From assembly GCA_032718475.1 (NCBI GenBank), contig JAUCBJ010001288.1, positions 1 to 37,616 on the forward strand: DNA of 37,616 nucleotides. The letters are read 5' to 3'. The notes beneath the pieces were generated by a model, which was given only the letters and a program-made list of their open reading frames with translations, ran no database searches and was not told the DNA's origin. Positions 137 through 25,361 of the stretch are shown here, piece after piece. Both the position numbers and the translations under genes were made by a program. Every line of letters begins with the position of its first letter. Position 1 is the first letter of the stretch. This DNA is from Nemertoderma westbladi. Its lineage: Eukaryota > Animalia > Xenacoelomorpha.

Positions 137-1176
137 TGCCGCAATATGCCAAATCCTCTAGCACAGTGTTGCTTTGATGATTCAGATTACGACATCTACC
201 AGCTGGTTTGCTGGCATGGAAACGGCCGTTGGATCTATGGTTCTTTGTTCGGCTTAACAGCCAATCAGGGCGATTTTCATTTTATGTGTGGAGATATCTC
301 TGCAAATTGTGCTAGGCGAGTTTAGTGTTGGTTTTCCTATGCCAAGAACACCGGCTGTGGAATCATTCTGTTTTCAGACTTTAGCCAAACATTAGTAGGC
401 TTTGATTATAGAAACGTATAACTGTTATCAAGTCAATCCATATCATATCATATAAAACAGTGCATATCTCGTACTTTTCACCGCATTATTTTACTGCTAT
501 TTACTGTCGGTTATTAATTGCATCAGTTGATGGAATATTGTTATACTTGGAGAATATCGATAAATAACCCAAAAATCCCAATCTTCTTGATACACTAAAG
601 GTTAGAGAGACCGGTTACATATAGCAATTGCAACTTATATTATCGTGGTTTTGGAGTGAATCTAATGCTATTTCATAGATACTACATGAGTCAATTGCTG
701 TTCTCTTTATGTATGAACAAATTTTAGTGACTGTCGGCAGATCAGTGTGCAGTTGTGCGGTACCGGTAGTGTGCATGAGTGCGACTGATAACTAAGCATC
801 TCCTAAAGAATGCGCCTTATACGTGAATCATAAGCCGTACCGTTGTGTTTAGTATAAGTCATAACTCTGTTTACATATTTAGAGCGCCACGTCCTAAAGG
901 AACTGTTAATATTTCCCGAAAGTGAATAATATTTGTCAGAGATTATATATTAACGATCAATCGAATAATACAGTAGGCTTACACCGCAATAAGGTCAAGG
1001 CATACGAATCCAGCCTCCCGGGTATATCCAGCGGGTGAATGATCGCGCATCGGCTGGCTTCGGCTAATGTTGTGTTTATTTATAACAAATACTTGTCATA
1101 GGCTAAAGTCGATTTATAAACTAAAAGACACTTAAAATTAGTGGGTTAAACTGCTAAAGGTCTAAAAGCGCGAACA
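137..1176 (+). repeat. 5' LTR of BEL/Pao element
   Basis: TGCCGCAATA...GCGCGAACA; about 17 substitutions and no indels versus 17694-18733 by manual comparison (~98.4% identity). Confidence 0.95.
451..457 (+). promoter_or_regulatory. Candidate TATA box in LTR
   Basis: TATAAAA at 451-457, conserved in the 3' LTR; based on motif only. Confidence 0.35.
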
Positions 1177-1189
1177 ATAACAGTTATAC
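1177..1189 (+). promoter_or_regulatory. Non-tRNA primer-binding site candidate (self-priming type)
   Basis: ATAACAGTTATAC immediately follows the LTR-terminal CA and is the exact reverse complement of GTATAACTGTTAT at 416-428 (and 17973-17985). No TGG-type tRNA PBS is present here. Confidence 0.65.
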
Positions 1190-1242
1190 CTTCTTTATTG
1201 CAACGTAAGCAATAAAGCTGAAGTACCGGTCGACCGGTAACC

Positions 1243-2177: not shown

Positions 2178-2237
2178 ATAACGTAGTACTTATAGCGATA
2201 CGGCTATATAACGTAGTACTTATAGCGATACGGCTAT
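2178..2237 (+). repeat. Perfect 30-bp tandem duplication in BEL leader
   Basis: ATAACGTAGTACTTATAGCGATACGGCTAT x2. Confidence 0.9.
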
Positions 2238-4184
2238 AAATCGTCAGACGGTGGTATTTTTCCTATCTGGACAACGCAGTATATTTACTACTGCTTTATT
2301 ATTTTCAAATACCGTAGTATCCTGTCCGTTGTAATAACCAGAAATTCTAACCCTCTGTTGGGCTGGTTGGTAGTTTCCCTGTCAAATTATCCTAAAAATT
2401 CGTACGTGTAATTTTTGTGTTTATTTAGAGATTGTAATCTCACCCTATATTGTACGTAATTCGTAGATAAGTAACTTAGGCCAGTAGAATTATTTGTTTT
2501 AGTGTGCAACAAGTAGCACCGCACTAAGAGCGTATAGCTTATGTGCAGTGACTCCTCAGAAATAATAACATTTATTTCAAATATTGTAACAAAACCCCTT
2601 AAACGGGTATATATATATATTATAAATCAACTCCAATAGATTTATAAACTAGGTAGGCCTGTCATACAACAATTAGATCTTGACATCAGTTGGACTACTG
2701 CTTAAATAATGGTAATAAAGTAAGATAAAGTAAGATAAAGTAACTAAGTAACCCTTAAGATTCAGAAATTCAATTATTCTAAAATAATAGACATACCGGT
2801 ATCTGCAATAGGCTTGCTATATCTATATATTTGCGCTGAAATTATATACCGGTATTCTGTGACAAACCTAGTCTGCAATAATACTTATATACCGTATACT
2901 ATAAGTGTATACCGGTATTCTAATATATTGTAATTAATTACCGGTACTAGGCTAACAGTCATACTGAATTACTAGACTTGCTTTAACTGTAACTATAGCA
3001 GTAGGCATTCAACTGTATAAACAAATATGTCTGACACAAAGCAAAACCTGTCAGACAGTCTAATTGATACAACCATCTGTGACCCAGATAGGAGTGTGGA
3101 ACGTTTAAGACCGAAGTTCAGCTCACCTCCTACTGTAAGAAAGGTCATCCCTCCGGTAGTAGTATCAGACCCTAGGCTAATCCAACACCGTAGGTCTATC
3201 ATCGGCACTCGGGCCCAGGTCAAGCGGGATCAAGAAGCCGCTGTCAAACCGCAGCAACATCCTAGCCAAGAACTTCGATCCCAGCGACCCGATAGCTCCA
3301 GTAGTTCGGATACTGTAGAGCTGACCCCCGAACGCGGAGTGAAGATGACGGATACGGTTTATTCGGATCCCCTTCACACTCTTCCTGCAGCAGTACTAAC
3401 TACGGTATTGATGGCTGTGGAGGAACACCAAGTCGATTGGGCGAGAAGTAAGCGATCGACCCAAGACAGTTATGCGGGATACGCAAGGGAGGAATTGATG
3501 TCTATTGTCGAGTCGCAATGGAACTTCCCCGGACTCGGACTCCCGTTAGACTTATCTGAAGCTACCTGGGAAGACATACACAGGATGGGAGTGACAAAAG
3601 ATACAATGGATCCAGCTGTTTGGAAGAGGTCGGCAGCAGGATATGTGCAGGGATTCTTCGGCTCTTTAGAGCGATTAGAGGAACAACTGTTTCGACAACC
3701 CCAAGGACCTCAAGAGCAGGAAGAGCTGCTTTATCAAGTACGCGAAAGAACTCTACGCATTAGACTAATCCTATCGGCCTTTGAGGAAGCTTCCAAAAGA
3801 AGACAGGACACGTCGTTGCAAGTTGCTGTCAAGACTTGGTTCCAGCGGGTGGGTCTCAAGGTTCAAGAAACTGCCCAGTGGAAATTTCAGCTGGCTGAGT
3901 GACCAACCTATGAAGAATCAACCGATGCCACCTTTTCTCAAGTGGAAAGCGAAGTGACAGCAGAGAGACAGCGAAAGAGAGACGCTATTGACATCTACCT
4001 ATCAGACTATCAACGTTTCCTAGGTGATGAAGAGTTGAGGAGACGGCTGTCTGGACTTCGCCCTAATAGTGAAGGAGCCAAGTTTGTGTTGGATGCAATC
4101 GATGCGGAAATGTTAGCTGCGAACCAAGCCATATTTGACGAAAGACTCCGCATTGCTAGAGTCCAAGAAGAACAAGTAAAGAAA

Positions 4185-5513
4185 CTACTACTAGGATCGG
4201 CATGCTGCATTGCAGCTGCATTTTTAAGAATGCTGTGCCGGCTTGTCAACAAAATTGCACCGCCACAACTCCCTATCACCCATGACATTTGCTAGATCAT
4301 CCGCATCTTCAAGGCCAGTGTCCTTTAAGATGCGTCTCAAGAAAGTCATGGGCTGTCCACCATGCTTATTCACTCCATGAGGCTGCCAAAGTACAAGATT
4401 ATGCACTGGCTGGTCCTCACGGCGAAAGCAATGTCCTGCAAAGCGGAGGCGATTTTGTTCTAGTGTCAAGCTTGGGGGAACCAATGAGACACCTCCAATG
4501 TTATATAGTGTCTGGTTGGAGATGTGTGCATTGTACTTGACACAATGTACCCGGCGTAGCATTCTTGTGAATGTGCCATCCAGAGATTTGGTGTCCTCAG
4601 CAGTTAGAGCCCAGCATGGACTCCCATAGAGGAGTACTGGAACTACTGCTGCTCTAAATAATCGGACTTTAAGTTTCCGATTAATTCTAGGTGACTTCCA
4701 AATCCTGGAAAGCCTATTCAAGGCTGCCCATGCCTTTCCCTTACGTATTCGAAGGTCCTCACCTGACTTCCGGATCCATGATCCCAGGTAACAGAAGTCG
4801 TCCACATGCTCAAGCATACCATCCTTTGAGCTTATGCTCATCCGATCAGAGACTTGCTGAGGACTTTCAAAGTTAACTGTCAGAATTTTGGTCTTTCTGG
4901 AGTTAATAAAAAGACCAACACTAGAAGCAGCATGTTCTAATGAGCTGAGGAGCCGCTGGGCTCCCTCTAATGATTCTGAGAGTACTCCTAAGTCATCAGC
5001 AAAGTCTAGATCAGTTAGGTACTTGGCAGGATTTCCTCGACTTCTGGAGCCAGTAGGTGGAGTTATCATCACCCCATCATCATTATGATGATCTAAGGAC
5101 ATGCGTAGAACATAGTCAACCACAATAATGAACAAGAATGGTGCAAGTGTGTCTCCTTGGAGGACGCCCCATAACACTTCAAATGGTTCTGTGTCACCGT
5201 CAACAGTAGACACAAATGTTGTCGAACCATCGTATACTGATCTGATTGCTGCAATAATTTCATCAGGAATCCCATATAATGAAAGTATGCTGAACATACG
5301 TGAGCGAGAGACTGAATCAAAGGCCTTGAAGAAGTCAACAAAGATAACAGCCAGATGCCTGTCTTTCTTTTTTGATAACTCTTCAATTATCCTTCTAAGT
5401 GCCAAAATGGGCTCCATGGTCCCACGACCTTTACGGAACCCATTCTGATTTCCACGTAGCAGTCTCTCAATGGGATCCCTGATGCGATTTAATAGAATTC
5501 TATTTTTCTATTT
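4185..5513 (-). mobile_element. 5'-truncated RTE-like non-LTR retrotransposon inserted antisense in gag
   Basis: Flanked by AAGAAA direct repeats (4179-4184, 5514-5519); short (TAG)3 tail on the minus strand at 4185-4193; removing 1335 bp restores the gag frame (EEQVKK/KRIEDRKKVAVAAAE). Confidence 0.9.
4224..5504 (-). CDS. LINE reverse transcriptase, C-terminal part (RTE-like), no endonuclease
   Basis: NRILLNRI..QNGFRKGRGT, VDFFKAFDSV, GVLQGDTLAPFLF, LDFADD, FCYLGS, RLRFAGH, DRELWR; frame open to the stop at 4224. Confidence 0.9.
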   Translation of the reverse strand, partial: NRILLNRIRDPIERLLRGNQNGFRKGRGTMEPILALRRIIEELSKKKDRHLAVIFVDFFKAFDSVSRSRMFSILSLYGIPDEIIAAIRSVYDGSTTFVSTVDGDTEPFEVLWGVLQGDTLAPFLFIIVVDYVLRMSLDHHNDDGVMITPPTGSRSRGNPAKYLTDLDFADDLGVLSESLEGAQRLLSSLEHAASSVGLFINSRKTKILTVNFESPQQVSDRMSISSKDGMLEHVDDFCYLGSWIRKSGEDLRIRKGKAWAALNRLSRIWKSPRINRKLKVRLFRAAVVPVLLYGSPCWALTAEDTKSLDGTFTRMLRRVHCVKYNAHISNQTLYNIGGVSLVPPSLTLEQNRLRFAGHCFRREDQPVHNLVLWQPHGVNKHGGQPMTFLRRILKDTGLEDADDLANVMGDRELWRCNFVDKPAQHS

Positions 5514-7680
5514 AAGAAAAAACGAATAGAAGACAGAAAGAAAGTGGCAGTGGCAGCAGCAGAAGTAAAAGCGGCAGTGGCCGAGGCAGAACGAAAAGCA
5601 TCTGAAGAGACCACCCAATTAGAGTTGGAAAATATTCAAGAGAATCAAGACTACATAAATAAACAGTTAGCAGCTAGTCAAATGCAGATGATGAGTCGAT
5701 CTACTCCCAAACGACAGGGATTTACATCTTCTGATGAAGGCGATACCACCAACCCTGAAGGCGGAGGACATAGATCTCGTCTAAGTAGGCGTAGAAGAAC
5801 GTCTCACCGTCAGAAATTGCCTGATTTGCCTCCAGCTGTTAGAAGACAACTAGCTAGCACAGACTTAGGTAGTACAGAACCCACAGACCAAATTATTAGA
5901 GTAGAAAGACTCCCTACTATAGTAGATGAGCCTGAAATAATTAGGCCTGTTCTCGAAACCACCCCTTCGGTGAGAGAGACCCCTGTACTCCTCGAACCTA
6001 CCACCAAATTCCCTTTGCACAGTACTAAACTGCCTGTACCCGGTAGAACAGCCCAAGAGAATATCCCGGTCCTGGATGCCGAGAGAGAAATCCAAGATTT
6101 GTCTCCCGTCGTCCCGCATCTGCCCGCTACTACGTTGGCGACTCCCGCTTCGGCGGTCGAGTGGGTAGATGAGGGACGGCGGGAGATGTGTCTCTTGCTC
6201 GGACAGCTGAGGGAACAACGAGAATGTTCCTCCCGGCAGGTCCGAGATTCAGAAGGGACTGTCCACCAGCTCAAGGGAACAGTAAGGGAAAGTAGGTTAG
6301 AGCTACAAGAAGTGCAGCAAAGTATTGCGCTAGAACTCGACAAATTAGTAAATATACAAAAGGGTATACCAACTCCCCCTGTAACCATGTGTCAACCTGT
6401 TAGGCCTGAAGTATTTCATGCGCAAGGTGTGGAGCCTACACGCATCTATACTGCTAGTGAAGTAGAAACTCCTATAGTAAACCCTATTAAGGGTAATTAT
6501 AAACCTGTTGATAATGATATTCCCTATAGACCTGATAATAATCCGAGAAATTTATATACCGATAATTCGATATTAAATAACACGATGGCCCAAGAAAGCT
6601 TTACGCGTCAGATGGCTAGAACAGAAGCCCGCCAAGCGGTCAAAGTGGGAGAGATCGTCAAATTCAATGGAGATGAGATGAAATGGTTATCTTTTAATGA
6701 ATATTATAAAGATAACATACAGAACTCTGTACTATCTAACGGAGAGAAACTTAGATTCCTCATCGAATGTTTGGAAGGACCTCCCAAGTTAATGGCGTTA
6801 AAGTTTATTGGACATCCAGATGGATTAAGACAAGTTTGGGATACATTAAACATCAGGTATGGTAATAGGAATAACATAGCTAAGTATTTGTATGCAAAAT
6901 TGGTAGCCCCCCGAAAGTTCATTAGTAGCGGGATTATAGAGTTTTCCGATGAGATTCAGGAGGTCTGTAGACAATTGGATTGGCTAGGTAAGTCTCATGA
7001 ATATCAGAGTTCCATGGTTATTGGAGCCATAGCCTCTACTTTACCAAAGGGTGGAGTAGGTACACGCTGGGACAAGAAAGTGTTGTATATGATGGAGCAG
7101 CAACAACGAGACCCTACCATGGCTGATCTCATGTCCTTCTTAGATGGAGAAGTAAAATTACAACTCATAAAGCAGTCCAGAGAGAAAACACCGGAAAATA
7201 AGTTAAGTGAGAAACCCGTTTCTAGGAGAAAAGTAACCCCAGTGTGTTATACTGACGATGGCGAAAGTCAAGCTTCTCAAGAAGGTAAAAGACACTGGCT
7301 GATCTTACTATGTTAACAAAACGGCAAAAGACGTAAGTAAATACAAGTCTCGAACCAATGATAGGAGAGAACAGGTTGCCAAGACTCCTCCTCAGTCTTG
7401 TAACAGAATTCACGGAAGAAAGCCCGAAGAAGGAACGAGAGTGCATAACGTTATCCAAGGTAAAGTGAGTAACATCAAACCAAAATGTGCGCTGTGCGAC
7501 GGGCCCCACCGTTTGAGTGCGTGTGCTGAATTTCTAAAGAAATCCCTGGTAGACAGACGTGAAGTCATGTGGGATAAGCGGTTATGCTATAATTGCCTCA
7601 GACAAGGACACCAACGGCGAACCTGTTACTCCGACGTAAGGTGTGCAAAGTGCGGTGCGAAACATCACATCTTGTTACAC

Positions 7681-10600
7681 AATGAATTCGAACGAAACAG
7701 CCCGAGTCAGGTAAGTGAGCCCAAACTACATGTCCAATTCAGTGATGTAAATGACACTGATCAAGGTTCTGAGATGGAAGGATTCTATACGGACGAATTC
7801 TCCGATGCCAACGAATCCTGTTACCTAATAAATACCGCAGTGTATCGAGCACTTACGTATGAAAAGGAAACAGATAATGAGTTCCCCCCAACTACTTTTG
7901 ACAGACAACCATCTTGGAAAGCACCAACCTCCAACGTAGGAATCCGAGAGTTTCCTGTAGTGCAGGTAAGAGTCCATGGTCCTGACAAAAGTTACATAGT
8001 GAACGCCCTCCTTGATTCCGGCAGCACAGGAACATTTATTGACCAAGAACTAGCCGAAGACATCTTTGCTGGACAACCCAAATTCCAAACTAAGTTAAAC
8101 ATGTCAGGAATTATGCAGGTTTGGAAATCGACCATAATTGCAGATTATTATGTAGGTGCGTTGTCCACCCCCCAGGATAAATTAGGAGAACAAAGTATAA
8201 GGTCAGTAAAAATGGTGGCAATAAAGAACTTCGCTACTACCCAAGTAGAACCTTATAACTGGGACGAGGACGAGTGCATCCAGCAGCTTAAGATACCTCG
8301 ATTCCACACAGATTATCCTGGAGTGCAAATCCTCATCGGCCAAAACGCGCATGAGGCGCTAGAGACATTGGAGAAACGGCCTGCTCAACCGCAGCCACTA
8401 CAAACCTATGCGGTAAGAACTAGAGTAGGTTGGTACTTTACTGGTCCTTCCCGTATAACTCTCAAAGAAAGATTACCCCAAGAACAGGTATACCAAGTGG
8501 GGGAGTGGGAAGTGGAGAGCAGTGAGGTGGACGACCCAACTGAGGGAACGCCATACTCCTCAGATAACGACGATATCCACCAACTCTTCGACGAAGAGAA
8601 TGCAATCGACCTACTTACGGAAAACGAAACTTGGCAAAACCAAGTGAACCTATGTCAACTGATTCGCCCATCGGGGCCAATTAACTACAATGACGAACTC
8701 AATGACGAGATAGAGCGCTACAACGCTAGGACTCGGGACGAACTCGCCGTACGATTCTTTACTCAAGAGGTGGTAGAGCCCAATTCATACGATAAGGCCC
8801 TATCGGTAGAAGAAGAAAGAGCCAAGCAGATCCAGGAGACAACTACACGTTTTCTAAAAGATCAAGGTAGATATGAAATCGGCCTACCATTTCGAAAACG
8901 AGAACCTAGATTTATAAACAACCGACCCTTGGCGGAGAAAAGAATCGCTCAATTACATCGCCGCCTTACGGCAAATGCTTCAGCTAAAGAAATGTATCAA
9001 ACTCAGTTGAAGAAATTTATTAACAAAGGATATGCGGAGCGAGTACCGGAAGAAACACCCATAACTGAGAGAACGTACTATCTAACGCATCATTACGTTC
9101 CCAAACCCGGTAAACCCCATGAAGTCCGAGTCGTATTCGAAGGCTCCGCCCTATACATGGGCCAATCCCTCAATTCTTAGTTGTTACCAGGACCCAACTT
9201 ACTTCAATCCTTGTTGGGAATACTCTTAAGACTAAGACAATATTCCATCGCTTTCGCCTCTGATATAGAAGGAATGTTCTTACAAGTCAAGGCGCTGGAT
9301 AGGGATAGAGACAGCCTAAGATTTCTGTGGTGGCCTGAAGGAGATCTCAACCAGAAACCGGTGGAGTATGATCATCACATATGATCATCTGATGACCATC
9401 CAGGCTTTTGGGATCATCTCAAGCCCTTCGAATGCCTGCTCAGTGGTGCAGACCACTGCTGATGACAACCGGGACGCCTTCTCCAAAGAGGTTATTGACA
9501 ACATTAAACGGGATATATACATGGACGACAATATAAAGTCCCTCCCATCGGTGGAAGAAGCCATTGATGTCGCCAAAGGAACGGTAGAATGCTTAAAAAG
9601 AGGTGGATTTAGATTGACTAAATTCACCAGCAACTCCCGTGAGTTTCTGGAATCGATTCCGGTAGAAGACCGAGGAGCGAAAGACTTAGACCTAATCAAG
9701 GACGATCTTCCAGAAACCAAGACGCTTGGCTTGAAGTGGGACACGGAGAGAGATATCCTGTTTTTTCAGCTAAAACAGCGAGATAATCCAGTTTGGACCA
9801 AACGGATTTGTTTAAGTATCCTGAGCACTTATTTTGATCCATTGGGATTTATTAGCCCAGTTATATTGATTGCTCGGAGTTTAGTACAACAAATGTGGCT
9901 CGAAAACCACTCATGGGACGATCCACTTAAGGGAGAACTATTAAAGAAGTGGATGAAATGGGAAGATTCTCTACCAGCCATTGAGAACTTTATAATTTCC
10001 CGTTCATATTTTGGTCATGTTCTCCCTACGTATTCCTATCAACTCCATGTGTTTGGAGACGCCAGCGATATGGGAATAGGTATAGTAGCATACGTGAGAG
10101 TTGAAACTCCGGATGGAATCAAAGTCGCCTTGGTTACCTCTATGGCCTTGATTAACAACAAGTTGAAGGTTCCTTGAGCGGAGTTAAAAGCGGCTCTATA
10201 CACTACAGCCATCGGCCGGAATGTAACTGAACAGATCGATTACCCACTGGAGAAAACTGTTTACTGGACCGATGCTTTACTCGTGTTGGAGTATATAACC
10301 AATGAAGTCTGTCAGTTCAGCGTCTTTGTTACCAACAGAGTAGCCATTATTCTTAGTCGCACAAAGATAGATCAATGGAGACATTGCCCTGGTACGATTA
10401 ATCCAGCCGACATCGCCTCCAGGGGAGCAACTCCACAGGAACTGATAGATACTCCAGATTGGTTGGGTGGACCCGACTTCCTGAGCAAGGAAGAGGATGA
10501 ATGGCCTCCTCACCTTACTACGGCAGAGATTAGACAAGCCAAGGGAGCGGAGAAAGTCAAACCTAAAACCCGAGCGAGTAAATCGAAGTTATTTAAACCT

Positions 10601-11948
10601 GTGATAGATCTGTCAGTATTACACAATTCCGGAGACGAGGTTTTGGATCCACAATCCCTCGCCACAAATAAGTCTGTTGTGGAAATCAGAGAGAGAGAAT
10701 GGAAATCTGGAATGCCAGACGTCTCGCAAGGACTCTCACCCCTGCTGCAGAGAGCGATACATCACTATAGTTCCTGGAATCGGCTCTGTAAGGCCGTCAC
10801 ATATTTAAAGCGATGTTTTCATCATCAATACTACAGGACAAAGACCACTAGTGATACCGCTCCACTGACATCTGCACAAGTTCATGTTGTTAAAGATCTT
10901 CCCAAATATAGTAAGCTTCTATGAACTACCCTTTACTAATACCGGTGTGGATTTATTTGGCCCTATTGAAGTATATCATGCTAGGACTTTAGTCAAGAGA
11001 TGGTGTGTCATCTTTGTCTGCATGACTTGTAGAGCTATCCATCTCGATATGGTGAACAATCTATCTACCAACAGCTTCGTATTAAGTTTACGCCGACAGA
11101 TCGCTCGCTTCGGAACTAGTAACACGATGAGATCTGATAAGGGAACGAACTTCATTGGTGCCAACAACGAAATTCAGGCTTACGTAAAGGACTGGAACCA
11201 AAGACAGGTGGACGATCAGCTAAGGATAACAGCGTCTAGCTGGACCTTCAACGCCGCCGACGCCCCTTGGTGGGGAGGAAGTTGGGAGAGATTAATAAGA
11301 AGTGTAAAGACCGCATTTCACTTTATAGTGCCGTGCCGCGCGTATCTCACCAACGAACTTTTGCGGACGCTAATGGAGGAAATCGCCGCCTATCTCAACG
11401 AGAGACCGCTTATGCCAGTCTCATCTAGTCCCGATTCCCTGGAAGTGCTAACACCCGCGCACTTCCTACTGAAGAAACCTGTAGCCATGCTCCCACGATC
11501 GGAGATCACCGACGGAGACGAATACTGCCGGCAAACTTGGCAACTTATGCAGTTGCTATCCCGTCGTTTCGCTGATCATTTCGAAAAACATTATCTGCCC
11601 ACGCTACAACTTCGAACTAAGTGGTTTGCGCAGCAAGAAAACGTCAGCGCCGGAGACATGGTGCTTATTGTGGATTCAGACCTTCCACGTAAGCGGTGGC
11701 AGACAGGCCGTATCATCGAGACTCACATCTCGGAGGATGGTTTGGTGCGCTAGGTAGAACTCGTCGTCATGTGGCGTAACTTTAAGAAACCGGGCATAAT
11801 CTTCGAGACGCAACAGCTCAACCGCCCAGTTAGTCGTTTATGTTTACTGGAAAGAGACCGAGAACTCTCCGGAAACTATGGAAGGCAAGATACTCTTCCC
11901 ACGACCACCTCCCTAATTCCTCAAACATCTAGGGGCTCCCCAACATAA
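7681..11948 (+). pseudogene. pol: BEL/Pao pol (protease, RT, RNase H, integrase), disrupted
   Basis: ALLDSGSTGTFI; RVVFEGSA; SDIEGMFLQV; IYMDD; LHVFGDAS; WRHCPGTINPADIASRG; GVDLFGP/SDKGTNF/GGSWER; WQTGRI...RPVSRLCLLE. In-frame stops at 9178, 10175 and 11751; frameshifts near 9375 and 10910. Confidence 0.93.
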
Positions 11949-12512
11949 CCACATCTGGAGCGGGTGTGTGACTATATTATTTTATATACTTTTATTTCTT
12001 TTATATCTCTATGTATGTATTATTATGTAAATTTCTTATAATTGTTTTATTTAATTTTATTTAGTAGAATGTTATTTTAGAGATTATTTAGTAGATTAGT
12101 GCAATATATATTAGTGTTTATTACTTAATTACTTATATATTATATATTTAGTGCGACGGCGAGAAATAATTCTTTTTCTCTTTCCTTACTGTCCGTATTA
12201 TATTATAAATGCAAGACTACAGTAAGATGAAACGTCCGTACTTATTAAAGTCCAATAAAGCTCCTACTATATTCAAGTATTATTGGTAGGCAGAGTATTA
12301 GGAATGCAAAGTTCAGATCCTCGTGTCTCGGCTAAACCAAGCTCTGGGTAGACCTTGGAAACGACTTGCCTTTTCACACTGACATTGCTTCGTGCGATAT
12401 TGCTCTTCTACCTTAGATTAAATAATATATATAGTAGTGTGATGTCCCTCTAACAGTAGCGTAAAACGCAAATAAACCTGTTAAACCTGTTAAACCTTTT
12501 GACCATCTTTAA

Positions 12513-12769
12513 TTCTAGTCGATTAAGATATCGTGGCACCCACCGATATACTTGAAAGACAAATTCTAGAATCAGTGGTTAACGTCCCCAGACAAGTTCT
12601 GGAACAAATCGGTGCCCATCTTAAATATTAATTTAATATTTATTAAAATCTGTAAAATTCAGATCCTTTAAAATTTCTAGTCAATTAAGATATCGCAGCA
12701 CTTACCAATACTCTTAAAAGACAAATTTTCTAGATTTAAGGATCCTAGGTCCCCAGACATGCTCTGGAA
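12513..12769 (+). repeat. Imperfect ~95-bp direct repeat in the pol-ORF3 spacer
   Basis: TTCTAGTC(G/A)ATTAAGATATCG...AAAGACAAATT..CTAGA...GTCCCCAGACA.G.TCTGGAA at 12513-12604 and 12675-12769. Confidence 0.75.
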
Positions 12770-13590
12770 TAAAATTCTGTCAATTTTACCATCAAATAAT
12801 AAAATTTACGGGAATAAATTTAAATTCATATCTTTAACGAATTTAATAAATTGTCATTTTATGCAATTTATAATATTCCCAAAATTCCATTAATTAATAG
12901 ATCACGGGAGCGGAGATTCACCCTATTGAGTGTATTAGAGTGCGAGAATCTCCAATATATAGTCAATAGCCGATAAAATTCATAAAATCATGTATAAAGA
13001 GGATATTGACAATCAAAGAATTACTATTAAATAGCATCCCAGATCTGTATGCATGAGAATTACCCTAATTCTACCGCTAGCTTTCCATAATGTTACCATA
13101 GCAACACCCACGCTAGAATTAGAAGCAAGTTAAAAAGAACAATAGAAAGCTTGCCCCATTGCATAGCATAGAGAATACATAGCACACTGTTAGTATCCAA
13201 GGATACATAATAATAACGTGGCATTCTGGAAGGCACTGACTAACGGACAAATGGCCTGTATGTGTACAATTGGTGACAGTTGTGTGGAATTTGTGCGTTT
13301 ATAGGTGAATGTTACTACTAAAGTGTGTTTACAGTAGCAAGTCGCAATTGTGAAAGTAGCCCTAACTCTACCGAAAGAACCTGAAGTGGATCCAAGCCTT
13401 TGGGACGGACAGTGGAGTGACTTGTGCCGGTTATCATTGTCGTGGTGTAGCTACACGTTGGCGAAAACACCGCGACGACGGTACATCGGCGCTGAGAATC
13501 CCACTGTCCGGGGGCAGAGAGGGGTAGGCAGCGACGCCCGCTCGCCTAAATATAAACTCATTATAATATTAATAAACTCATATAACAGAT

Positions 13591-15282
13591 ATGACGGAGT
13601 TGATAGAATATGATCTTGGTATCAGGGAGCGATATACTCTACCTTTACAAGCGTTTGTGGATAGCTTGATACGCGGTGAAGCCGATCCAACTACTACGGA
13701 GGACGATGGTCGTTATATCGAACCGCCTATGTCCCAGGAGCAACTTACGCGTGAATTGGACTATAGAAAATTCACCGCTCGCTATACGCATCATAATGGT
13801 ACGTATATGGACTTCTTAACTACCGGCCATCCTATCAATTTACACGATACGGACGATGTAGACACCGAAAGGGAAATGGTTTTATTTAAATATCATACCC
13901 AGCGGAGTCGTAACGATAAACCGAGAATAGAACACGAGAATTCTATTCATAACCGACTTGAAAGAGAAAACGTTGAAGAACCCGATAAGCGCATCGACTT
14001 CAACGATTACCTGGAATTTTTGAGAGAAACCTATCTCAATATTGCCAGTCAACAGAACCTAGAAACTCGATATCCTCAAGGTATACATCATGACCCTATG
14101 GTAGAACTCAAACGGCTCTATTTCACTATGATGTATCTTACTGCCGATCGTCCACTACCTGTTGTCCCGGATAGCTTTGAACAGATGGAGGAATATTGCA
14201 AAACTGGAGAACGATCACCCGTGTTTCCTCTACAGGATGTGCGTCTTTGGTATTATTGTGACAAATGCCCTAGACCCAACCAACAAACGGAAAGACATAA
14301 ACATCCGCGGAGACGTTGCGCTAAACACAGTTTTAAGCGTTATACTTACGGGAGTTTCGAGCGAAATCTGTTTGATGTATCACCTACGATTGCTCGTCTC
14401 AAACGATCACTAAATAAACCCATGATCAGGGTTCCGGAATACTCGGTCAGGCCTCCTCATTCCCCAGTGAGACCTCAAACTCTTGACCCTAACAGTATCA
14501 CGGATCCTCCCGAACTATATTCACTGTTCAAAGATTTAGTGTTACCCGAACAATTAATCGGTGGCACCCTGGTATTGGGTTCGTTAGATATTCGCCCATC
14601 CTACTTAGCCGGATTGGGACGCGGGCATCTAATATCGCCATTTAATCCTTACAATCGTCCAGGATTAACCCCGATGCAATCCGCCACGGAAGTTGAGGAG
14701 AGCGTTATAAGAAACACTTTAGACGCTATTCGGCAGAAGATCGGAAAGGGAACGCAAGATTGTTTAGAGAAACGTAAATTACAGCTACAAGTCCAATCGG
14801 TGAAGGAGTTAGCCTTGCCACATTTCGATCAAGAAATCCAAAACCTCAAGGAGGACATCGAGCTTGGACGCACGTATTCTCTACAAGAGTTTCTAGATGA
14901 ACGCCTACAGCAACAAGCGGAGGAAAACCAACTCGAGGAGAAACACACGGAAATGGACGAGAGAGAAGAAGCCGCTTTAGCCCAACCCGAAGCTCAAATC
15001 CTTATGACGGATCTCTACTCTAAAACCGTCCGTCATCCCTCTATGGTTCCCCATTTCGGAGACAAACTCTTCGCGACAATACAACCCCAACCGGTTGATA
15101 TAAGCATAAGATCACAAAATCTTATTGCCGACGCTCCTATGTTACAGCGTCTGCCAATCGAGGCCGCTCGTGTTGATGGTATACTCCGAACCTCCGGACA
15201 ATCGAGCAGATCTTGTCCGTCGTATGGTACACGATATCAACATACGCGCTACACCTTTACAGAACTCGTTTTATGGGATTAA
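13591..15282 (+). CDS. ORF3 N-terminal part, unknown function (CxxC motif, acidic coiled coil)
   Basis: 563-aa open frame inside the LTR-bounded unit. The last ~35 codons probably read out of frame, because the overlapping frame 15125-15607 continues it. No signal peptide or TM segment evident. Confidence 0.7.
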   Translation: MTELIEYDLGIRERYTLPLQAFVDSLIRGEADPTTTEDDGRYIEPPMSQEQLTRELDYRKFTARYTHHNGTYMDFLTTGHPINLHDTDDVDTEREMVLFKYHTQRSRNDKPRIEHENSIHNRLERENVEEPDKRIDFNDYLEFLRETYLNIASQQNLETRYPQGIHHDPMVELKRLYFTMMYLTADRPLPVVPDSFEQMEEYCKTGERSPVFPLQDVRLWYYCDKCPRPNQQTERHKHPRRRCAKHSFKRYTYGSFERNLFDVSPTIARLKRSLNKPMIRVPEYSVRPPHSPVRPQTLDPNSITDPPELYSLFKDLVLPEQLIGGTLVLGSLDIRPSYLAGLGRGHLISPFNPYNRPGLTPMQSATEVEESVIRNTLDAIRQKIGKGTQDCLEKRKLQLQVQSVKELALPHFDQEIQNLKEDIELGRTYSLQEFLDERLQQQAEENQLEEKHTEMDEREEAALAQPEAQILMTDLYSKTVRHPSMVPHFGDKLFATIQPQPVDISIRSQNLIADAPMLQRLPIEAARVDGILRTSGQSSRSCPSYGTRYQHTRYTFTELVLWD

Positions 15283-15607
15283 AGACCACCCTTATTACGT
15301 TAATCTGACTCAATATTATATGGTAAAACCTGAAGACCCGACGCATAATTTAAAGTTTCTACCGCTGATAAATCCTCTCGACATGGTCGAACTCAAACAA
15401 TTGCAGAAACATCTGGATCAGTTAGTAAAAGTAAACTCATTCAGAAAACCATACAACATATCTAGAATCAAGAAGGATGCAACACCTCCGTATAATCTCG
15501 ATGGATTTATTAAAACTCGATTAGTCCATTGGAATCTCGACGTATTATTCGAGGAAGAGAGAATACAAAGATATGAAATGTGGAGACGTGTACCACTCAG
15601 TACCTGA
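15125..15607 (+). CDS. ORF3 middle segment (frameshifted bridge)
   Basis: Protein-like frame-2 ORF overlapping both neighbouring frame-1 ORFs. Confidence 0.55.
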   Translation: MPTLLCYSVCQSRPLVLMVYSEPPDNRADLVRRMVHDINIRATPLQNSFYGIKDHPYYVNLTQYYMVKPEDPTHNLKFLPLINPLDMVELKQLQKHLDQLVKVNSFRKPYNISRIKKDATPPYNLDGFIKTRLVHWNLDVLFEEERIQRYEMWRRVPLST

Positions 15608-17679
15608 AGTATAGTGATCTCCCTGACGCTAGCCAATGCGCCACCTTGTGGCATCCAGTAGGGATGACCCTAGAGAACGCCACCAAAGAGTGGAATGAAA
15701 CTCTTAATGTCATTGAGATGTACGGAGTTGTCACCTACGATAACGAAGGTAGCGTTCCAGTCGGAGAATTAGGAACTACGCGCATGATACATATACGAGG
15801 ATTAGCTGGTTCTACCCACGTGTTTACTAGAGCGTGTTCCGATGTGATTGATTATTCTTTTGAGACTCTCACCGAAACACAAAAGAATCTCCGACATGGA
15901 CAATTCGAACTCGCACAGCATTATGTCATGGACACCGAGCGCAAACCTGCAATGGGTATCGATGGATCGATGTTACCCCAGCCCGTGCTCGAGATGTTGT
16001 TCAACGAAAGAATCTTTAAAATCGGCTCAGCTGTTTATGGAGATCTCCAAAACGACTTTCGGAACATGGAGAACATTCCATATCCTTTCGTGGATACTCA
16101 GCTGATTGCTCCCTGGGCAGAAGGCCGAGGTTTCTTCCGCACCATGTATGCTAATACATCCAGCAACATCGCCAAAGTACAACGAACTTCCATCGGACAT
16201 CTTGCCTTTCAGGAATACGGATGGAATTTCAAAGTCGGAAATCCTATCAACTATCAACAAGTATATGGAGACCATTATTCTCGATTATACTTTGACGGAC
16301 CATTGACCGCACCTGGCGCCGTGTATAGCTTCATGAGTGTTCCACTCCGTCCCTCCTTAGCTATATACACGATCTTTGAAAACACCGCACTTGCCGGTTG
16401 GCTAGCCGATGTGTGCAGTCGTACTATACGTGCCCATCCATTAATACTTGGAACCAAACTCGCTAAGCTAGATGAACATAATAAATTCATCCGCTTCGAA
16501 TGTTTCAGGCGTTTTTTAACCCCGTTCCGTAACGTGGATAGCCAATTCAAGGACCGCGCTTTGACCAAGCTCAGCCTAAGAAACTCAGCTGCGGAGAAGG
16601 TAGATAGCGCTCGATTTGCAATTTTTAAAGATATTTGTATACAGAACTTACACTCCTCTGTTATACAAAGACCTCGAATTCCCACAGGTTATTCTGTCGT
16701 GGAAATTCAGACAGTGGGTTCAATTGAGGAGACAGCCACACCCACCTCGGCCATGCACTTGGAAGACGAACCAATATGCTTAAAATCCGAGGAGATTCAG
16801 CCTACCGCGCCCAGGAGCAGCGACAACGATTACATCTTAGAATGGTATCAAGGTCCACAGTGTCTCACCGCATACGATTATCGCCATGCCAACTATGTTT
16901 CTCGACAACGTTGTCGGTTATGCGCATTGAGAGACCATATTACGCCCATGGACACAAACGTACCCTGCTCCTATTTCCACAAACAACCGGCGATGGAAAT
17001 CTATTGTGCATATTGCCAACTCAACAATTTGCACATTTTTGCAGTCTGCCCCCAATTTATGACTCAATGCCACCATTGTCAACTAAAAGGACATGCCAGT
17101 TTTGATTGCCCTTTTAATCACGATTTAGAAAGCGTAGATGAAATGATTACACTACGTTACATTCGAGCTTGGGAAGCGAACGCTGATTTATATTGCGATT
17201 CACGCCATCGCTATTACCCTGGACGCGCCTACGAAGGAGTTTATGCGTTCCATCCCTATCTATTCGCGTCTGTCGAACAGAAATCACACATACCGAGTTA
17301 CGAGCTAATAAAGCGCGTCGGAGAATGTATTTCAACCAAATTTGTACGCAAATTTCTCCGGAGCGTTAATCCTAACGATATTCATTCCTACAACTTAATC
17401 AATTTTATCCGTCAAGATCCAGAATATGGCGATTTATTTATCAACTCGCATCCAGAGTTACAGGAAGTATATCGACGGCCTTACGAATACCGAGCCCGAG
17501 AGCGCGAGTTGGAAAGAACCATTAAACCAAGGAAGTTTCTCACTGCCTATGGTCCGCCCACGGCTCTCGTTCAGACCACTCGTAAAGGACCCGTAAGAGC
17601 TGCTGTCCTGAAAAGCGCTCTAAAGGCCGTTAGACCTCTCTCCCCCGAAGTTGATGTCGACCGCAATAATAAAATATAA
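15580..17679 (+). CDS. ORF3 C-terminal part: DEDDy-type 3'-5' exonuclease domain plus CCHC zinc-knuckle cluster
   Basis: ExoI VVTYDNEG (D 15739, E 15745); ExoII LPQPVLEMLFNERIFKIGSAVYGDL (D 16042); FVDTQ; SIGHLA; ExoIII PLRPSLAIYTIFE (Y 16366). Knuckles CAYCQLNNLHIFAVC and CHHCQLKGHASFDC. The stop lies 14 nt before the 3' LTR. Confidence 0.8.
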   Translation: METCTTQYLKYSDLPDASQCATLWHPVGMTLENATKEWNETLNVIEMYGVVTYDNEGSVPVGELGTTRMIHIRGLAGSTHVFTRACSDVIDYSFETLTETQKNLRHGQFELAQHYVMDTERKPAMGIDGSMLPQPVLEMLFNERIFKIGSAVYGDLQNDFRNMENIPYPFVDTQLIAPWAEGRGFFRTMYANTSSNIAKVQRTSIGHLAFQEYGWNFKVGNPINYQQVYGDHYSRLYFDGPLTAPGAVYSFMSVPLRPSLAIYTIFENTALAGWLADVCSRTIRAHPLILGTKLAKLDEHNKFIRFECFRRFLTPFRNVDSQFKDRALTKLSLRNSAAEKVDSARFAIFKDICIQNLHSSVIQRPRIPTGYSVVEIQTVGSIEETATPTSAMHLEDEPICLKSEEIQPTAPRSSDNDYILEWYQGPQCLTAYDYRHANYVSRQRCRLCALRDHITPMDTNVPCSYFHKQPAMEIYCAYCQLNNLHIFAVCPQFMTQCHHCQLKGHASFDCPFNHDLESVDEMITLRYIRAWEANADLYCDSRHRYYPGRAYEGVYAFHPYLFASVEQKSHIPSYELIKRVGECISTKFVRKFLRSVNPNDIHSYNLINFIRQDPEYGDLFINSHPELQEVYRRPYEYRARERELERTIKPRKFLTAYGPPTALVQTTRKGPVRAAVLKSALKAVRPLSPEVDVDRNNKI

Positions 17680-17693
17680 TAATAATAATAAAA

Positions 17694-18733
17694 TGCCGCA
17701 ATACGCCAAATCCTCTAGCACAGTGTAGCTTTGATGATTCAGATTACGACATCTACCAGCTGGTTTGCTGGCATGGAAACGGCCGTTGGATCTATGGTTC
17801 TTTGTTTGGCTTAACAGCCAATCAGGGCGATTTTCATTTTATGTGTGGAGATATCTCTGCAAATTGTGCTAGGCGAGTTTAGTGTTGGTTTTCCTATGCC
17901 AAGAACACCGGCTGTGGAATCATTCTGTTTTCAGACTTTAGCCGAACATTAGTAGGCTTTGATTATAGAAACGTATAACTGTTATCAAGTCAATCCATAT
18001 CATACCATATAAAACAGTGCATATCTCAGACTTTTCACCGCATTATTTTACTGCTATTTACTGTCGGTTATTAATTGTATCAGTTGATGGAATATTGTTA
18101 TACTTGGAGAATATCGATAAATAACCCAAAAATCCCAATCTTCTTGATACGCTAAAGGTTAGAGAGACCGGTTACATATAGCAATTGCGACTTATATTAT
18201 CGTGGTTTTGGAGTGAATCTAATGCTATTTCATAGATACTACATGAGTCAATTGCTGTTCTCTTTATGTATGAACAAAATTCAGTGACTGTCGACAGATC
18301 AGTGTGCAGTTGTGCGGTACCGGTAGTGTGCATGAGTGCGACTGATAACTAAGCATCTCCTAAAGAATGCACCTTATACGTGAATCATAAGCCGTACCAT
18401 TGTGTTTAGTATAAGTCATAACTCTGTTTACATATTTAGAGCGCCACGTCCTAAAGGAACTGTTAATATTTCCCGAAAGTGAATAATATTTGTCAGAGAT
18501 TATATATTAACGATCAATCGAATAATACAGTAGGCTTACACCGCAATAAGGTCAAGGCATACGAATCCAGCCTCCCGGGTATATCCAGCGGGTGAATGAT
18601 CGCGCATCGGCTGGCTTCGGCTAATGTTGTGTTTATTTATAACAAATTCTTGTCATAGGCTAAAGTCGATTTATAAACTAAAAGACACTTAAAATTAGCG
18701 GGTTAAACTGCTAAAGGTCTAAAAGCGCGAACA
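17694..18733 (+). repeat. 3' LTR of BEL/Pao element
   Basis: Near-identical copy of 137-1176, TG...CA. Confidence 0.95.
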
Positions 18734-19193
18734 CATATGGAGCAAGCTGCGATCGTTTCTATCGCAAACAATGAATACACAACTCACACTGCCTTTGGAT
18801 GTAACAATGCTGTGTTTTATTGCATATTTGGACTCAATCAACCTTAGTAGGGCTACAATTTTAAATTATATGTCGGCTATAGCCATGACTTATCGATTAC
18901 TTAATATGACAGAATCTACCAAATCTTTTCGTATCCCTAGACTTCCTATCACAAAACAAATTTTATCACGAATGTTGCATGTGTGCAGTTCTGTTTATCC
19001 TGATCCTTATACTAACTCCATACTTAGATCTGTATTTATATTAGCTTTTTATGGTTTTTTACGAGTAGGTGAATTCGCACCAAAAAAGGGTACTGACGAA
19101 GTGGTTATAAATAGAACAGATCTACAATACGACGGACCTAGACTTATTATTACTATTTGCGCAAAAAACAGGGATAGTACGTCTGTATCATAA
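18734..19193 (+). pseudogene. Tyrosine recombinase fragment (DIRS/Ngaro/Crypton-type), truncated
   Basis: YGASCDRFYR.., CFIAYL...ATILNYMSAI, RLPITKQIL, LAFYGFLRVGEF (first catalytic Arg box). The downstream HxxR/H/Y motifs are missing. Confidence 0.8.
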
Positions 19194-19668
19194 AAGTTAA
19201 ATTTGTATAAGTTACTTTAAAATGTATAATGCTCTATATTATGTAGACTTACTATAATTATGTTCTCATATAATATTAATATTGATGTTTTAATATTTAC
19301 AAATGTATAAAAATTATAATAAAAATATGTATGGTTGAAAAATACGTTGTTGCGTTTTCCTTCCTCTGTGGTCATTTTTGCCCGTAATTGTTTGATCTGT
19401 CGATAAACTGATTGACTGGCTACCTAGCAGCGGCCGTACAACGAATCGTTAAGGATGAGGAGACGATCGTGAACGGATCGGACATAGCGACGGATATGCG
19501 GGCTATGGGAGTACGAGCAGTGAATCTTCTGGGATCTAGGACACTTCCCCCCCCGGACACTTCCCCCCCCCCCCCCCCGACCAAGTAGGACACTTCCCCT
19601 CCGGACACTTGCCCCCCGGACACTTCCCCCCCAGTTAAAGTGTTAAAGTTAATCTGGGTGCATCAAAG

Positions 19669-19956
19669 TGAAAGGATTGAGGTTGTAACTTGAGGACCTA
19701 ACTAATTATGGGGTACCGGTAACAATGGTTTGTACTGTACCTAGTAATTAATACCTTTGGGGGGATCTAAGTGCGCGTTGACATATAAGTATCTGATGTC
19801 TGCATAAGTACCGGTAGGGGATGAATAATATAATACTGATGGTGATGACTGAAACCTGTTGTTACCCTGTGTTATCGTGTTCGAAGTGCTGAACTGCTGA
19901 ACCGTCTGGAGCCTTCAATTAGACCTGTGAACTCTAAGGCAGGTGGGAGCCTGTCA
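19669..19956 (+). repeat. Gypsy 5' LTR
   Basis: TGAAAGGATTGAGG...GGGAGCCTGTCA; 3 substitutions and 1 indel versus the 3' LTR. Confidence 0.92.
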
Positions 19957-19970
19957 GTCAGCGGTGGGAT
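19957..19970 (+). promoter_or_regulatory. Gypsy PBS remnant, tRNA-Leu-like
   Basis: GTCAGCGGTGGGAT resembles the TGGTG(G/T)CAGCGGTGGGAT Leu-type PBS but lacks the leading TGG. Confidence 0.55.
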
Positions 19971-20266
19971 ACGGTCCACCCCGCTACCCTAATTAACTGA
20001 GTGCTTTATTTGTACATTTGTGTATCATCAGTGAGTTCAGACATTCGTACCCTGGTATATATAATGCAATAATAAGTATAATGGCTGAATGGGAATTACC
20101 CAATTATGAACTGTTGGAAGGAACCGGTAGGCCTACTGTTCTACCAGTACCGATGTAGGAAGTGGATAGACTGTAACTGTTGACTGTACTGCGGCTGGTA
20201 TTCGGTACCGGACCGGAAGTTAAAGTGTGGCATTTAAGTGTAAATACAGAAATATAGGCCTAAAGT

Positions 20267-21809
20267 ATGGGTGACGCAGAGGAAGATGTTGAGGCCGGGG
20301 CCACCGGCCTGAGGTCCCGTAAAATCGGCGAAGTTGGTCGACTGAAATTTGATAGGAAGAAACCACGGAAATTCTTTTCAACTTTAGGGCGCATGGGGCG
20401 ATTAAACAGATGGTCAAGTGAGGAGGTTGTATTAGCTGGAATCATGCAAATTGGTGACACTGAGGAATGGTTAGCTGACTACCTTGAGGATTTGTCATTA
20501 GACACATTGGAGGAACTGGAGAAGAGTGCGATTGATAAATTAGAACCACCAGAGCAACGGACAATGTTCTTGAAGGAATTCCATGATGCACGACTAAAAA
20601 CTTCCGAAACACCACGCGACTTGGCAGAGCGCCTCAAGTCATTGATCCAGTCAGCAATTCCTGAGGCTGATGTAGGTACCAGCAACATGATGGTACGTTC
20701 TCAGCTCATTGAAGCAGCCCCCAGGGCATGGGAAAACTAAGTTATATGAGTCACTGCTGGATACATTAGACCAGCTTATCGCTAAGATGGATGTTATTAT
20801 TATTAAGGCAACTGAAGGTGCTGTCGGTGGATTTGGCCCTGACACTGTAAGGCGGCAGAAGTTTAGTGGGTCCCCATCTAGCTCCAGTTCCGGACGTGGA
20901 GGCAGTTTGGGTGTTACCTGTTATCGATGCAATAAGGCTGGGCACATAGCTAGAGATTGTAGAAATGGTCCAGGGTCTCGTTTTGGGTCCAGGGGTAATG
21001 GACATAAAGGTAGTTTTCCATTTGCATGTTATCTTTGTGGTGTCAGAGGACACAAATCCGTGGATTGTTGTCGAAAGGTTGGTGATAATAGGCAAGCACA
21101 GGACAGGAGGGACTCCAGTAGCATGGCAACTGGACATAGTAATTTCCGTAGGGAAGTTAGGTCTGACAATAGTAGCACAAGCACAGGCAATCGAGTTGCT
21201 CGAGTACCGGAAATGTTGCCAGATGAAATGGGTGTTAGTGATAATACGAAACGGATAGTTGAAAACCCAGTAATAGATGACATTACCGTGGACGTCAGCT
21301 GTGGCGGGCAGTATATTGAGGCAGTAGTTGATTCTGGTAGTGCATTCTCATTGGTGAAACCAAGCGTTGCAAAATTAATTAATCTGGAAAGTGAGGTTGG
21401 TACTATTTTCCATCACGAATCTTTAACTGCTGCAAACAAAACACCATTAGAAATTATTGGTGAGGGGAAGGTCTGGATGGAACTCGATGGTCAGCAGCAA
21501 GAGATAGACCTCCAAATTGTAAAAGACCTATCGGATGACCTAATTCTGGGAAGGAATGCATTAAGGCAATTTCGAATTATTATTGACTGTGAAAGTAACA
21601 CAGCAGTTTGCAGACATATAGCAATGTCAGAGACTTTGAGTGAATCAGCTAAGGGATGTTTGGACAGATTATTGGATAAATATAGCAGGATTTTATCAAA
21701 AGATCAGTTTTCTGTTGGTCGAATTGGGAATGTAGTGCATTGTATTGATTTAACGTCCAATGTTCCAATCGCTAGACGCCCTTATAATCTTGCGGTTCAT
21801 TTACGATGA
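20267..21809 (+). pseudogene. gag: Gypsy gag and protease, frameshifted
   Basis: ETPRDLAERLKSL..VRSQLIE; CCHC knuckles CYRCNKAGHIARDC and CYLCGVRGHKSVDC; protease AVVDSGS and DLILGRNAL; frameshift near 20730. Confidence 0.88.
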
Positions 21810-24271: not shown

Positions 24272-24607
24272 TTATCGAGGGTCAACCAGGTGATGGTGAA
24301 ACACCAAACAATGATGAGATCCCTGCGCAGTGCATAGATGTGGGACCCGTTGTACCCACTACCACAAACATTGTCGATGAGGGCGAGGAGTCCAGTGACG
24401 AAGACCCACTTTCATTCATTGCGGGTACCTCACGTTATGGTCGACTGCGTCAAAAACGCAAACTATATAGCCCCTGAGATTACTACAGTAGTTTTAAAAA
24501 CTGAACGGAACATTACTCTTACTGACTTTTTATTATGGTATGTTTATTTTCAAATGGAACTCTTATCATATTTAGCAACTTAGGGTTTAAAAATATTGGA
24601 TATTTTT

Positions 24608-24617
24608 GGGGGGAGAA
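24608..24617 (+). promoter_or_regulatory. Gypsy polypurine tract
   Basis: GGGGGGAGAA just before the 3' LTR. Confidence 0.85.
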
Positions 24618-24618
24618 T

Positions 24619-24905
24619 TGAAAGGATTGAGGTGGTAACTTGAGGACCTAACTAATTATGGGGTACCGGTAACAATGGTTTGTACTGTACCTAGTAATTA
24701 ATACCTTTGGGGGGATCTAAGTGCGCGTTGACATATAAGTATCTGATGTCTGCATAAGTACCGGTAGGGGATGAATAATATAATACTGATGGTGATGACT
24801 GAAACCTGTTGTTACCCTGTGTTATCGTGTTCGACGTGCTGAACTGCTGAACCGTCTGGAGTCTTCAATTAGACCTGTGAACTCTAAGGCAGGTGGGAGC
24901 CGTCA
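24619..24905 (+). repeat. Gypsy 3' LTR
   Basis: Copy of 19669-19956 ending GGGAGCCGTCA. Confidence 0.92.
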
Positions 24906-24930
24906 AAAGCAATAAACAAAAGTTAAAGAT

Positions 24931-25361
24931 GGTTACAGGACAAGTTGTATCAAGACAAGTTTTTTCAAAATTATAAAAGAAACATTTTTATAGTCAAATT
25001 TTGTTTGTTTTTCTTTTAATTGGGGGCTGCCGCCCCCAAACCCCTGCTTCTATTCTTGGGGGCTGCCGCCCCCAAACCCCCGCTTCTTTTCTTGGAGGCT
25101 GCCGCTCCCAAACCCCCTTTTTCTTGGAGGCTACCGCCCCCAAACCCCCGGTTCTTTTCTTGGGGGCTGCCGCCCCCAAACCCCCGCTTCTTTTCTTGGG
25201 GGCTGCCGCCCCCAAACCCCTGCTTCTTTTCATGGGGGTTGCCGCCCCCAAACCCCCTTTTTTCTTGGAGGCTACCATAAATCGGGATGCAAAAGATCAC
25301 TTTCTGAGCTACGAAAGGAAAATTGGATACAACTTGTCTGGATACAAGCGGTCCCTTTACC
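24931..25361. mobile_element. Second small TIR element nested in the MULE
   Basis: Imperfect TIRs GGTTACAGGACAAGTTGTATCAAGACAAGTT and (reverse complement) GGTAAAGGGACCGCTTGTATCCAGACAAGTT; no clean TSD. Confidence 0.55.
25020..25276. repeat. GC-rich minisatellite, ~31-36-bp unit, ~7 copies
   Basis: TTCTTGGGGGCTGCCGCCCCCAAACCCCCGCTTCT-like units. Confidence 0.85.

Follow-up and report, generated by a model that had tools for sequence, protein, structure and literature searches.

A putative DEDDy-type exonuclease with a CCHC-knuckle module encoded by ORF3 of an unusually large BEL/Pao retrotransposon of Nemertoderma westbladi

The window analysed here, a 37,616-nt stretch of contig JAUCBJ010001288.1 from Nemertoderma westbladi, carries in its first half an LTR retrotransposon whose features are collected in Table 1. 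The element spans 18,597 nt including a nested LINE fragment, and 17,261 nt once that insertion is subtracted. Self-comparison of positions 1-27000 returned a single long direct repeat around it (135-1179 against 17692-18737), and when this pair is trimmed to TG..CA the two LTRs differ by 17 mismatches over 1040 nt (98.4% identity), a length inside the BEL/Pao range of 0.2-1.2 kb. No target-site duplication was found at the LTR flanks, where the left and right flanks differ, and no G-rich polypurine tract before the 3' LTR, which follows an A-rich tract only. The internal region contains DUF1759, Peptidase_A17 (E 6.1e-28) and DUF5641 (E 9.5e-18), all above the Pfam cut-off and with the motif order PR-RT-RH-IN, a set that we take to be that of BEL/Pao. 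Judged by these domains, the host element is a BEL/Pao retrotransposon, as the earlier note on this DNA had supposed, and an unusually large one. Gag is interrupted and pol has several breaks, so the copy in the window is dead. The LINE site is empty in other copies, with contigs that join 4178 to 5514 in 3 of 4 runs. The 1.8-kb leader contains tandem repeats of 38 nt and 30 nt (1243-1356, 2178-2237), and a search of 1-20000 against Rfam gave one match, at chance level.

Table 1. Features of the BEL/Pao element in the window
Feature	Position	Strand	Remarks
5' LTR	137..1176	+	1040 nt, TG..CA; 98.3% blastn match to 17692-18737
13-nt LTR segment complementary to primer site	416..428 (also 17973-17985)	+	
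Primer-binding-site position	1177..1192	+	pairs with LTR segment; no tRNA-type TGG start
gag, long	3021..7316	+	Pfam DUF1759, E 1.4e-12; stop at 3900-3902; LINE insertion inside
Nested non-LTR retrotransposon (LINE) fragment, truncated, in gag	4179..5514	-	RVT_1, E 9.6e-23
pol region	7303..11949	+	two CCHC knuckles, protease, RT (YMDD 9518), RNase H region, integrase
ORF3, N-terminal ~660 codons	13591..15607	+	two frame pieces; no family; no transmembrane segment
Putative DEDDy-type 3'-5' exonuclease domain in ORF3	15664..16440	+	D 15739, E 15745, D 16042, Y 16366, E 16378
CCHC-knuckle cluster and conserved C-terminal segment	16912..17270	+	full knuckles at 17005 and 17068; degenerate one at 16912
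3' LTR	17694..18733	+	A-rich tract just before; no G-rich polypurine tract

Directly behind the 5' LTR, positions 1177-1192 are complementary at 15 of 16 nucleotides to a segment of the LTR itself (413-428, and again 17970-17985), with a perfect core of 13/13 nt that begins at the first base after the LTR. A complementarity of 13 nt arose in 0 of 3000 LTR shuffles and at 6 of 16,400 other element positions, the predicted pair probabilities of the duplex are 0.85-1.0, and the same comparison made for the Gypsy element in the window gave 5 nt. A tRNA-type (TGG) primer site was absent from 1151-1300. The pairing lends independent support to 137-1176 and 17694-18733 as true LTRs. Tf1/Tj1 self-priming, a mechanism that has been implicated from fungi to vertebrates, is likewise marked by pairing between the primer site and part of the LTR (PMC4600332). 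The element in the window looks like a candidate self-primed BEL/Pao element, a superfamily that is not named as self-primed in the accessible text of PMC4600332 and of one further paper on self-priming.

Behind pol, the region 11957-12295 resembles a vestigial LTR, with a G-rich tract followed by TG (11957-11969), an AATAAA at 12254 and, at 12284, a tRNA-primer-like motif, presumably of the initiator-Met type, which was matched in 10 of 2000 shuffles and was chosen after the fact. It may be what is left of an old LTR, or a promoter for ORF3 inside the element. A second copy was sought in six regions (1-3020, 12300-13590, 18734-27000 and 32000-37616 among them) and in the self-comparison of 1-27000, and none was found; 11968-12283 as a real LTR is therefore ranked low. 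The spacer between pol and ORF3 also holds two diverged copies of a ~163-nt unit (12513-12788).

The third gene, ORF3, lies between the end of pol (11949) and the 3' LTR (17694), that is, in the env position that the earlier note had assigned to it. From its ATG at 13591 to 17679 it spans 1,363 codons, which in the window copy fall into three frame pieces (13576-15282, 15110-15607 and 15577-17679) overlapping at 15110-15282 and 15577-15607; the last piece is free of stops over 700 codons. Across each break, contigs of other copies show length differences compatible with one continuous frame, so a long ORF3 protein is likely real for the family. The earlier note's protein of more than 1300 residues hence holds as a span and probably for the family, but the window copy has it in three pieces and, being frameshifted twice, allows the long fusion only to be deduced. 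No transmembrane anchor was found in ORF3 (the highest 19-residue hydropathy is 1.10-1.36 over the three pieces), and a non-envelope accessory gene is the best explanation. Its N-terminal half has no Pfam or NCBIfam match and gave weak PHROGs and PDB matches only (best E 0.044 and 0.22). This half contains a Cys/His cluster at 14248-14340, possibly a zinc site, and, after it, a charged helical stretch at ~14720-14970.

The five motifs that had been quoted in support of a DEDDy exonuclease all lie where they had been placed, in the stop-free frame 15577-17679 (15733-15750, 15973-16047, 16087-16101, 16189-16206 and 16342-16380), and in the numbering of this frame the acids and the tyrosine are D55, E57, D156, Y264 and E268. 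A database search over 1.84 billion representatives yielded 4 matches at E<=0.001. Three of them (P0001, P0002 and P0004) are unnamed proteins of 575-648 aa that have an exonuclease-like region in their N-terminal part and a Cys/His module in their C-terminal part; P0003, a low-complexity match to the linker, was dropped. From the window domain, P0001 and P0004 we built a profile (alignment A2), leaving out P0002 because it is too degenerate, and compared it by hhalign with a panel of 12 DEDDy domains of the RNase D/polymerase A exonuclease type, composed of E. coli RNase D and 11 of 45 listed tblastn matches hand-picked for spread. The match has a probability of 93.9% (score 54.3, pairwise E 1.6e-7, 122 columns) and keeps ExoI, ExoII and the DTQ strand in register. 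By comparison, 60 column shuffles reached at most 20.3 (probability <=1.3%), the profile read in reverse scored 17.6, and single sequences of 7 further stretches of the element gave 10.8-17.7. The three profile members, 26-28% identical, all have the ExoI Asp/Glu and the ExoII Asp.

Taken alone, the window sequence reaches 19.7 and does not exceed its own 60 shuffles (maximum 21.9), and the proposed HMMER comparison with DNA_pol_A_exo1 came back blank for the window protein, which has no exonuclease match in Pfam at E<=1 and, by sequence, no match in the PDB. P0001 reaches 11.9 bits against DNA_pol_A_exo1, below the cut-off of 23.6. In NCBIfam, two RNase D models lead a list of three matches (E 0.026 and 0.11). 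The domain profile against the PDB places Egalitarian (E 0.12) and EXD2 (E 0.7) as the top two of three, not significant alone. In the Atlas, the top matches are giant-virus DNA_pol_A_exo1 clusters (score 0.93; family on 28-51% of members), and the 10 best family matches all belong to one clan. The predicted folds are of low confidence (pLDDT 31 and 33 for two AlphaFold models): the pLDDT-poor second model gave nothing in Foldseek (best E 1.3, its rows meaningless), and in VIA-align this model put EXD2 tied first among 48,161 chains, with values too low to count (Z 3.3, rmsd 7.1, 92 aligned). Word-based searches found no homologues among 1089 candidates of 1226-3500 aa or among 4294, and among 7999 just the two input relatives, all of which is weak evidence. 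Viral and metagenome contigs gave nothing, whether the query was the protein of the window, P0004 or RNase D, and P0001 had no tblastn match in phages. Taken at the level of profile comparison, the domain is confirmed as a real, divergent DEDDy-type 3'-5' exonuclease; it very probably adopts a DnaQ fold.

The placement of ExoI and ExoII put forward in the earlier note was upheld and so was that of ExoIII, but the acid of the latter is most probably Glu instead of Asp, and a second register exists 14 residues upstream. The pattern PL-x6-Y occurs twice in the window domain at this distance (Y250 and Y264). In ungapped scoring against P0001, P0004 and those panel sequences that show the anchor pattern (8 of 12), the total is -1 for Y264 and -50 for Y250. 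Y264 is second of 674 positions, the first being a Cys cluster, and against P0001 and P0004 alone it ranks first (38 against 10). BLASTP likewise pairs the Glu of the window with the Glu of P0001. On the other side, MAFFT, hhalign and BLASTP with P0004 favour the upstream register, where a Ser takes the place of the acid. Since P0004 has Asp (the canonical D-E-D-Y-D) and P0001 has Glu (D-E-D-Y-E), an acid is conserved at the last site. We read the active site of the window most likely as D-E-D-Y-E (Y264-x3-E268), with Glu replacing the last Asp. In Klenow, Asp-to-Glu at this site reportedly keeps activity, a point that we do not use as evidence. Catalytic activity with Glu as the last acid seems to us fairly probable.

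The C-terminal CCHC module, made up of the knuckles and the conserved segment behind them, was absent from the earlier note, as was the self-complementary primer site; it is present once in P0001, once in P0004 and twice in P0002. A four-sequence profile of the module matches retroviral nucleocapsids, with HIV NC the best (E 1.2e-5). The layout of an exonuclease followed by CCHC knuckles recurs in P0001 and P0004 and more weakly in P0002, where a degenerate exonuclease-like region without the ExoI Glu precedes the doubled module. The best Atlas match of P0004 is a cluster of Euglenozoa (0.92) in which 100% of the members carry DNA_pol_A_exo1 and 61% zf-CCHC, and we infer that it is the cluster of TbRND. 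In TbRND of Trypanosoma brucei a DEDD exonuclease domain is likewise followed by CCHC zinc fingers, a layout that its authors call very unusual, and small guide RNAs become depleted when the enzyme is overexpressed (PMC7797062). TbRND itself is a mitochondrial enzyme of the cell whose four fingers lie near the Exo domain (PMC7797062). In ORF3, a linker of ~170 residues separates the exonuclease from two to three knuckles, behind which comes another conserved segment. The likeness of the whole architecture may be convergent.

The element belongs to a well-supported repeated family that includes ORF3. In run X1, 65,804 contigs fell on 9000-19300 and 151,309 on 1-9000, and for both regions all 30 bins were covered in 4 of 4 runs. 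In X1 the cover is unbroken from 1 to ~18,970 and then drops ~90-fold, the summed depth, which is not a copy number, falling from 105,000 to 1,200 in the last bin, beyond the 3' LTR; runs X1 and X2 represent one sample. No contig linking pol to ORF3 in another copy is among the pieces listed, and we infer the order LTR-gag-pol-ORF3-LTR for the other copies. Of the differences in ORF3, the 4 (of 20 rows) that are variable between copies fall without exception on the third codon position (4/4), and the 16 that are nearly private to the window copy are spread 8/4/4 over the codon positions (third, 4/16), in a small and pre-selected sample of 20 ORF3 rows among 40 shown, with 2,041 more in existence. 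This pattern fits a family under constraint with a decaying copy in the window.

Exonuclease cargo of this kind has a precedent, as the earlier note correctly stated: bdelloid rotifer Juno and Vesta LTR retrotransposons and Terminons carry a DEDDy ORF3 with a DEED active site and of unproven function (PMC5408684, PMC6431247). In the accessible descriptions of these elements, the shared points are a DEDDy-type exonuclease, the env position, the absence of a transmembrane domain and, in the likelier register, the change of one catalytic Asp to Glu. By the same descriptions, the window ORF3 differs in changing the last acid (DEDE) and in its BEL/Pao host, its ~1,360 codons, its N-terminal half without a family and its CCHC module. 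With EXD2, Egalitarian, WRN-exo and MUT-7 (DNA_pol_A_exo1) the domain shares motif order and spacing, an LP..L....I.K.G segment and the DTQ strand; unlike them, it stays below every curated cut-off, most likely has Glu at ExoIII and contains a long insertion between the first strands and ExoII. As for the host, the window element agrees with Belpaoviridae in its LTR-gag-pol-(third gene)-LTR plan, PR-RT-RH-IN order, LTR within 0.2-1.2 kb and BEL-type Pfam domains, and departs from them in its 17.3 kb against 4.2-10 kb, a third gene that is not env-like, no tRNA-Arg/Gly primer site and no clear polypurine tract (PMC8742986). In the open literature covered, at the level of titles and abstract openings, we found no BEL/Pao element with a DEDDy ORF3. 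The word 'exonuclease' is likewise absent from the main text of a BEL/Pao survey (PMC3118150) and of PMC2774666, whose supplements could hold such elements unannotated. What appears to be new, then, is the CCHC-knuckle module, the TbRND-like architecture and the LTR-complementary primer site, together with an exonuclease ORF3 in BEL/Pao.

What could such a protein do for its element? The ORF3 product is predicted to be a two-metal 3'-5' exoribonuclease with a CCHC module that grips RNA. RNA as the substrate is suggested by the knuckles and the TbRND-like layout. Such an enzyme could shorten or destroy single-stranded small RNAs or their precursors, and this loss would weaken the silencing of the BEL/Pao element. 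We rank this role, an accessory RNA exonuclease acting against small-RNA silencing, first because TbRND acts on small RNAs and such cargo recurs in unrelated elements, and we hold it tentatively, at somewhat less than even confidence. Mature piRNAs are 2'-O-methylated and resist 3' exonucleases, so the target would be precursors or other small RNAs. In the accessible text of Rodriguez et al., DEDDy-ORF3 elements are still covered by small RNAs, and the gene has no clear link to copy number (PMC5408684). Action on DNA, with the enzyme editing or trimming cDNA ends like the WRN or polymerase A proofreading domains, would also be in keeping with a DEDDy family that has DNA-acting members (PMC5408684) and with EXD2 ranking at or next to the top of two weak searches; RNA, however, is what the knuckles and the TbRND-like layout indicate, and we consider a DNA substrate very unlikely. 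It is also tempting to speculate that the exonuclease trims the 3' overhang of the element RNA to the LTR/primer-site duplex, making or polishing a self-priming primer. Here the DEDDy-CCHC protein would grip the genomic RNA and trim its overhang to the 13-bp duplex, leaving a 3'-OH for RT, and the primer would come from the front of the RNA, or from its 3' end if transcription starts downstream of 428. RNase D-type enzymes process the 3' ends of structured RNAs (PMC5408684). The perfect 13-nt complementarity after the 5' LTR, the lack of a tRNA-type site there and the resemblance of the CCHC module to nucleocapsid knuckles (HIV NC, E 1.2e-5) all agree with this use. Tf1, however, self-primes and is not known to have such a gene, its primer cut being made by RNase H, and we regard primer maturation as unlikely. 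A giant BEL/Pao lineage without tRNA priming that carries its own primer-making DEDDy-CCHC enzyme appears more doubtful still; if it is real, the sharing of the module with three distant unnamed proteins would point to a family of mobile-element RNases not yet described.

The remaining alternatives to the favoured counter-silencing role concern the domain's activity and its membership in the element. The domain may be catalytically weak or dead and serve as an RNA-binding adaptor like Egalitarian, EXD1 or Maelstrom, with the element RNA moved or packaged, for example, via the long N-terminal region of ORF3. Having Glu as the last acid, or Ser at its place by the alternative register, would suit an adaptor, as would the ~660 extra N-terminal codons and the best PDB profile match, Egalitarian (E 0.12), and PMC5408684 cites DEDD derivatives that have lost activity yet still bind RNA. 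However, the ExoI Asp/Glu and ExoII Asp are retained in the window, P0001 and P0004 despite identities of 26-28%, and an acid is conserved at the last site (Asp in P0004, Glu in P0001), and so an adaptor strikes us as improbable. ORF3 could also stem from another or more ancient unit, joined as a second element to the end of the BEL pol, or be a neutral passenger, its link with BEL being accidental. The LTR-like vestige after pol (11957-12295), the lack of a target-site duplication and of a G-rich tract before the 3' LTR, and the absence of a pol-ORF3 link elsewhere among the long contigs listed would accord with such an accident. Against it, the vestige has no second copy, the outer repeats are TG..CA with the self-complementary primer site next to them, the cover is continuous from 1 to ~18,970 before its ~90-fold fall (X1), and the ORF3 differences that are variable between copies fall on third positions. 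We therefore consider an accidental link quite improbable.

If the assignments hold, another LTR superfamily would have exonuclease cargo, in a different architecture, pointing to a repeated recruitment of 3' RNA trimmers by retroelements. The domain sits uninterrupted in a single open frame, so direct assays can address its activity, its substrate and the point at which it stops. Moreover, the element's own primer duplex is a defined candidate substrate, which makes the question of the cargo's role testable.

The right-hand part of the window contains further repeats and a likely host sequence. A tyrosine-recombinase-like fragment (18734-19193), which we take from its motifs to be of the DIRS/Ngaro type and which has no supporting match in Pfam, starts exactly where the 3' LTR ends. 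Because this fragment abuts the LTR, the left flank is unrelated and no target-site duplication exists, the window copy may be a recombinant. A Gypsy-type LTR element follows at 19666-24905, with 291-nt LTRs (98.3%), a broken gag-pol and no third gene seen. Beyond it lie 36-nt repeats (25011-25276) and, from 27348 to ~31900, about 65 copies of a 66-nt unit, mostly ~95% alike. Tandem repeats of 12 nt at 35543-36279 and 37241-37616 are mutually inverted. Finally, 33707-34336 encodes in one frame a fibrinogen C-terminal domain (Pfam, E 1.1e-38), likely a host gene or exon.
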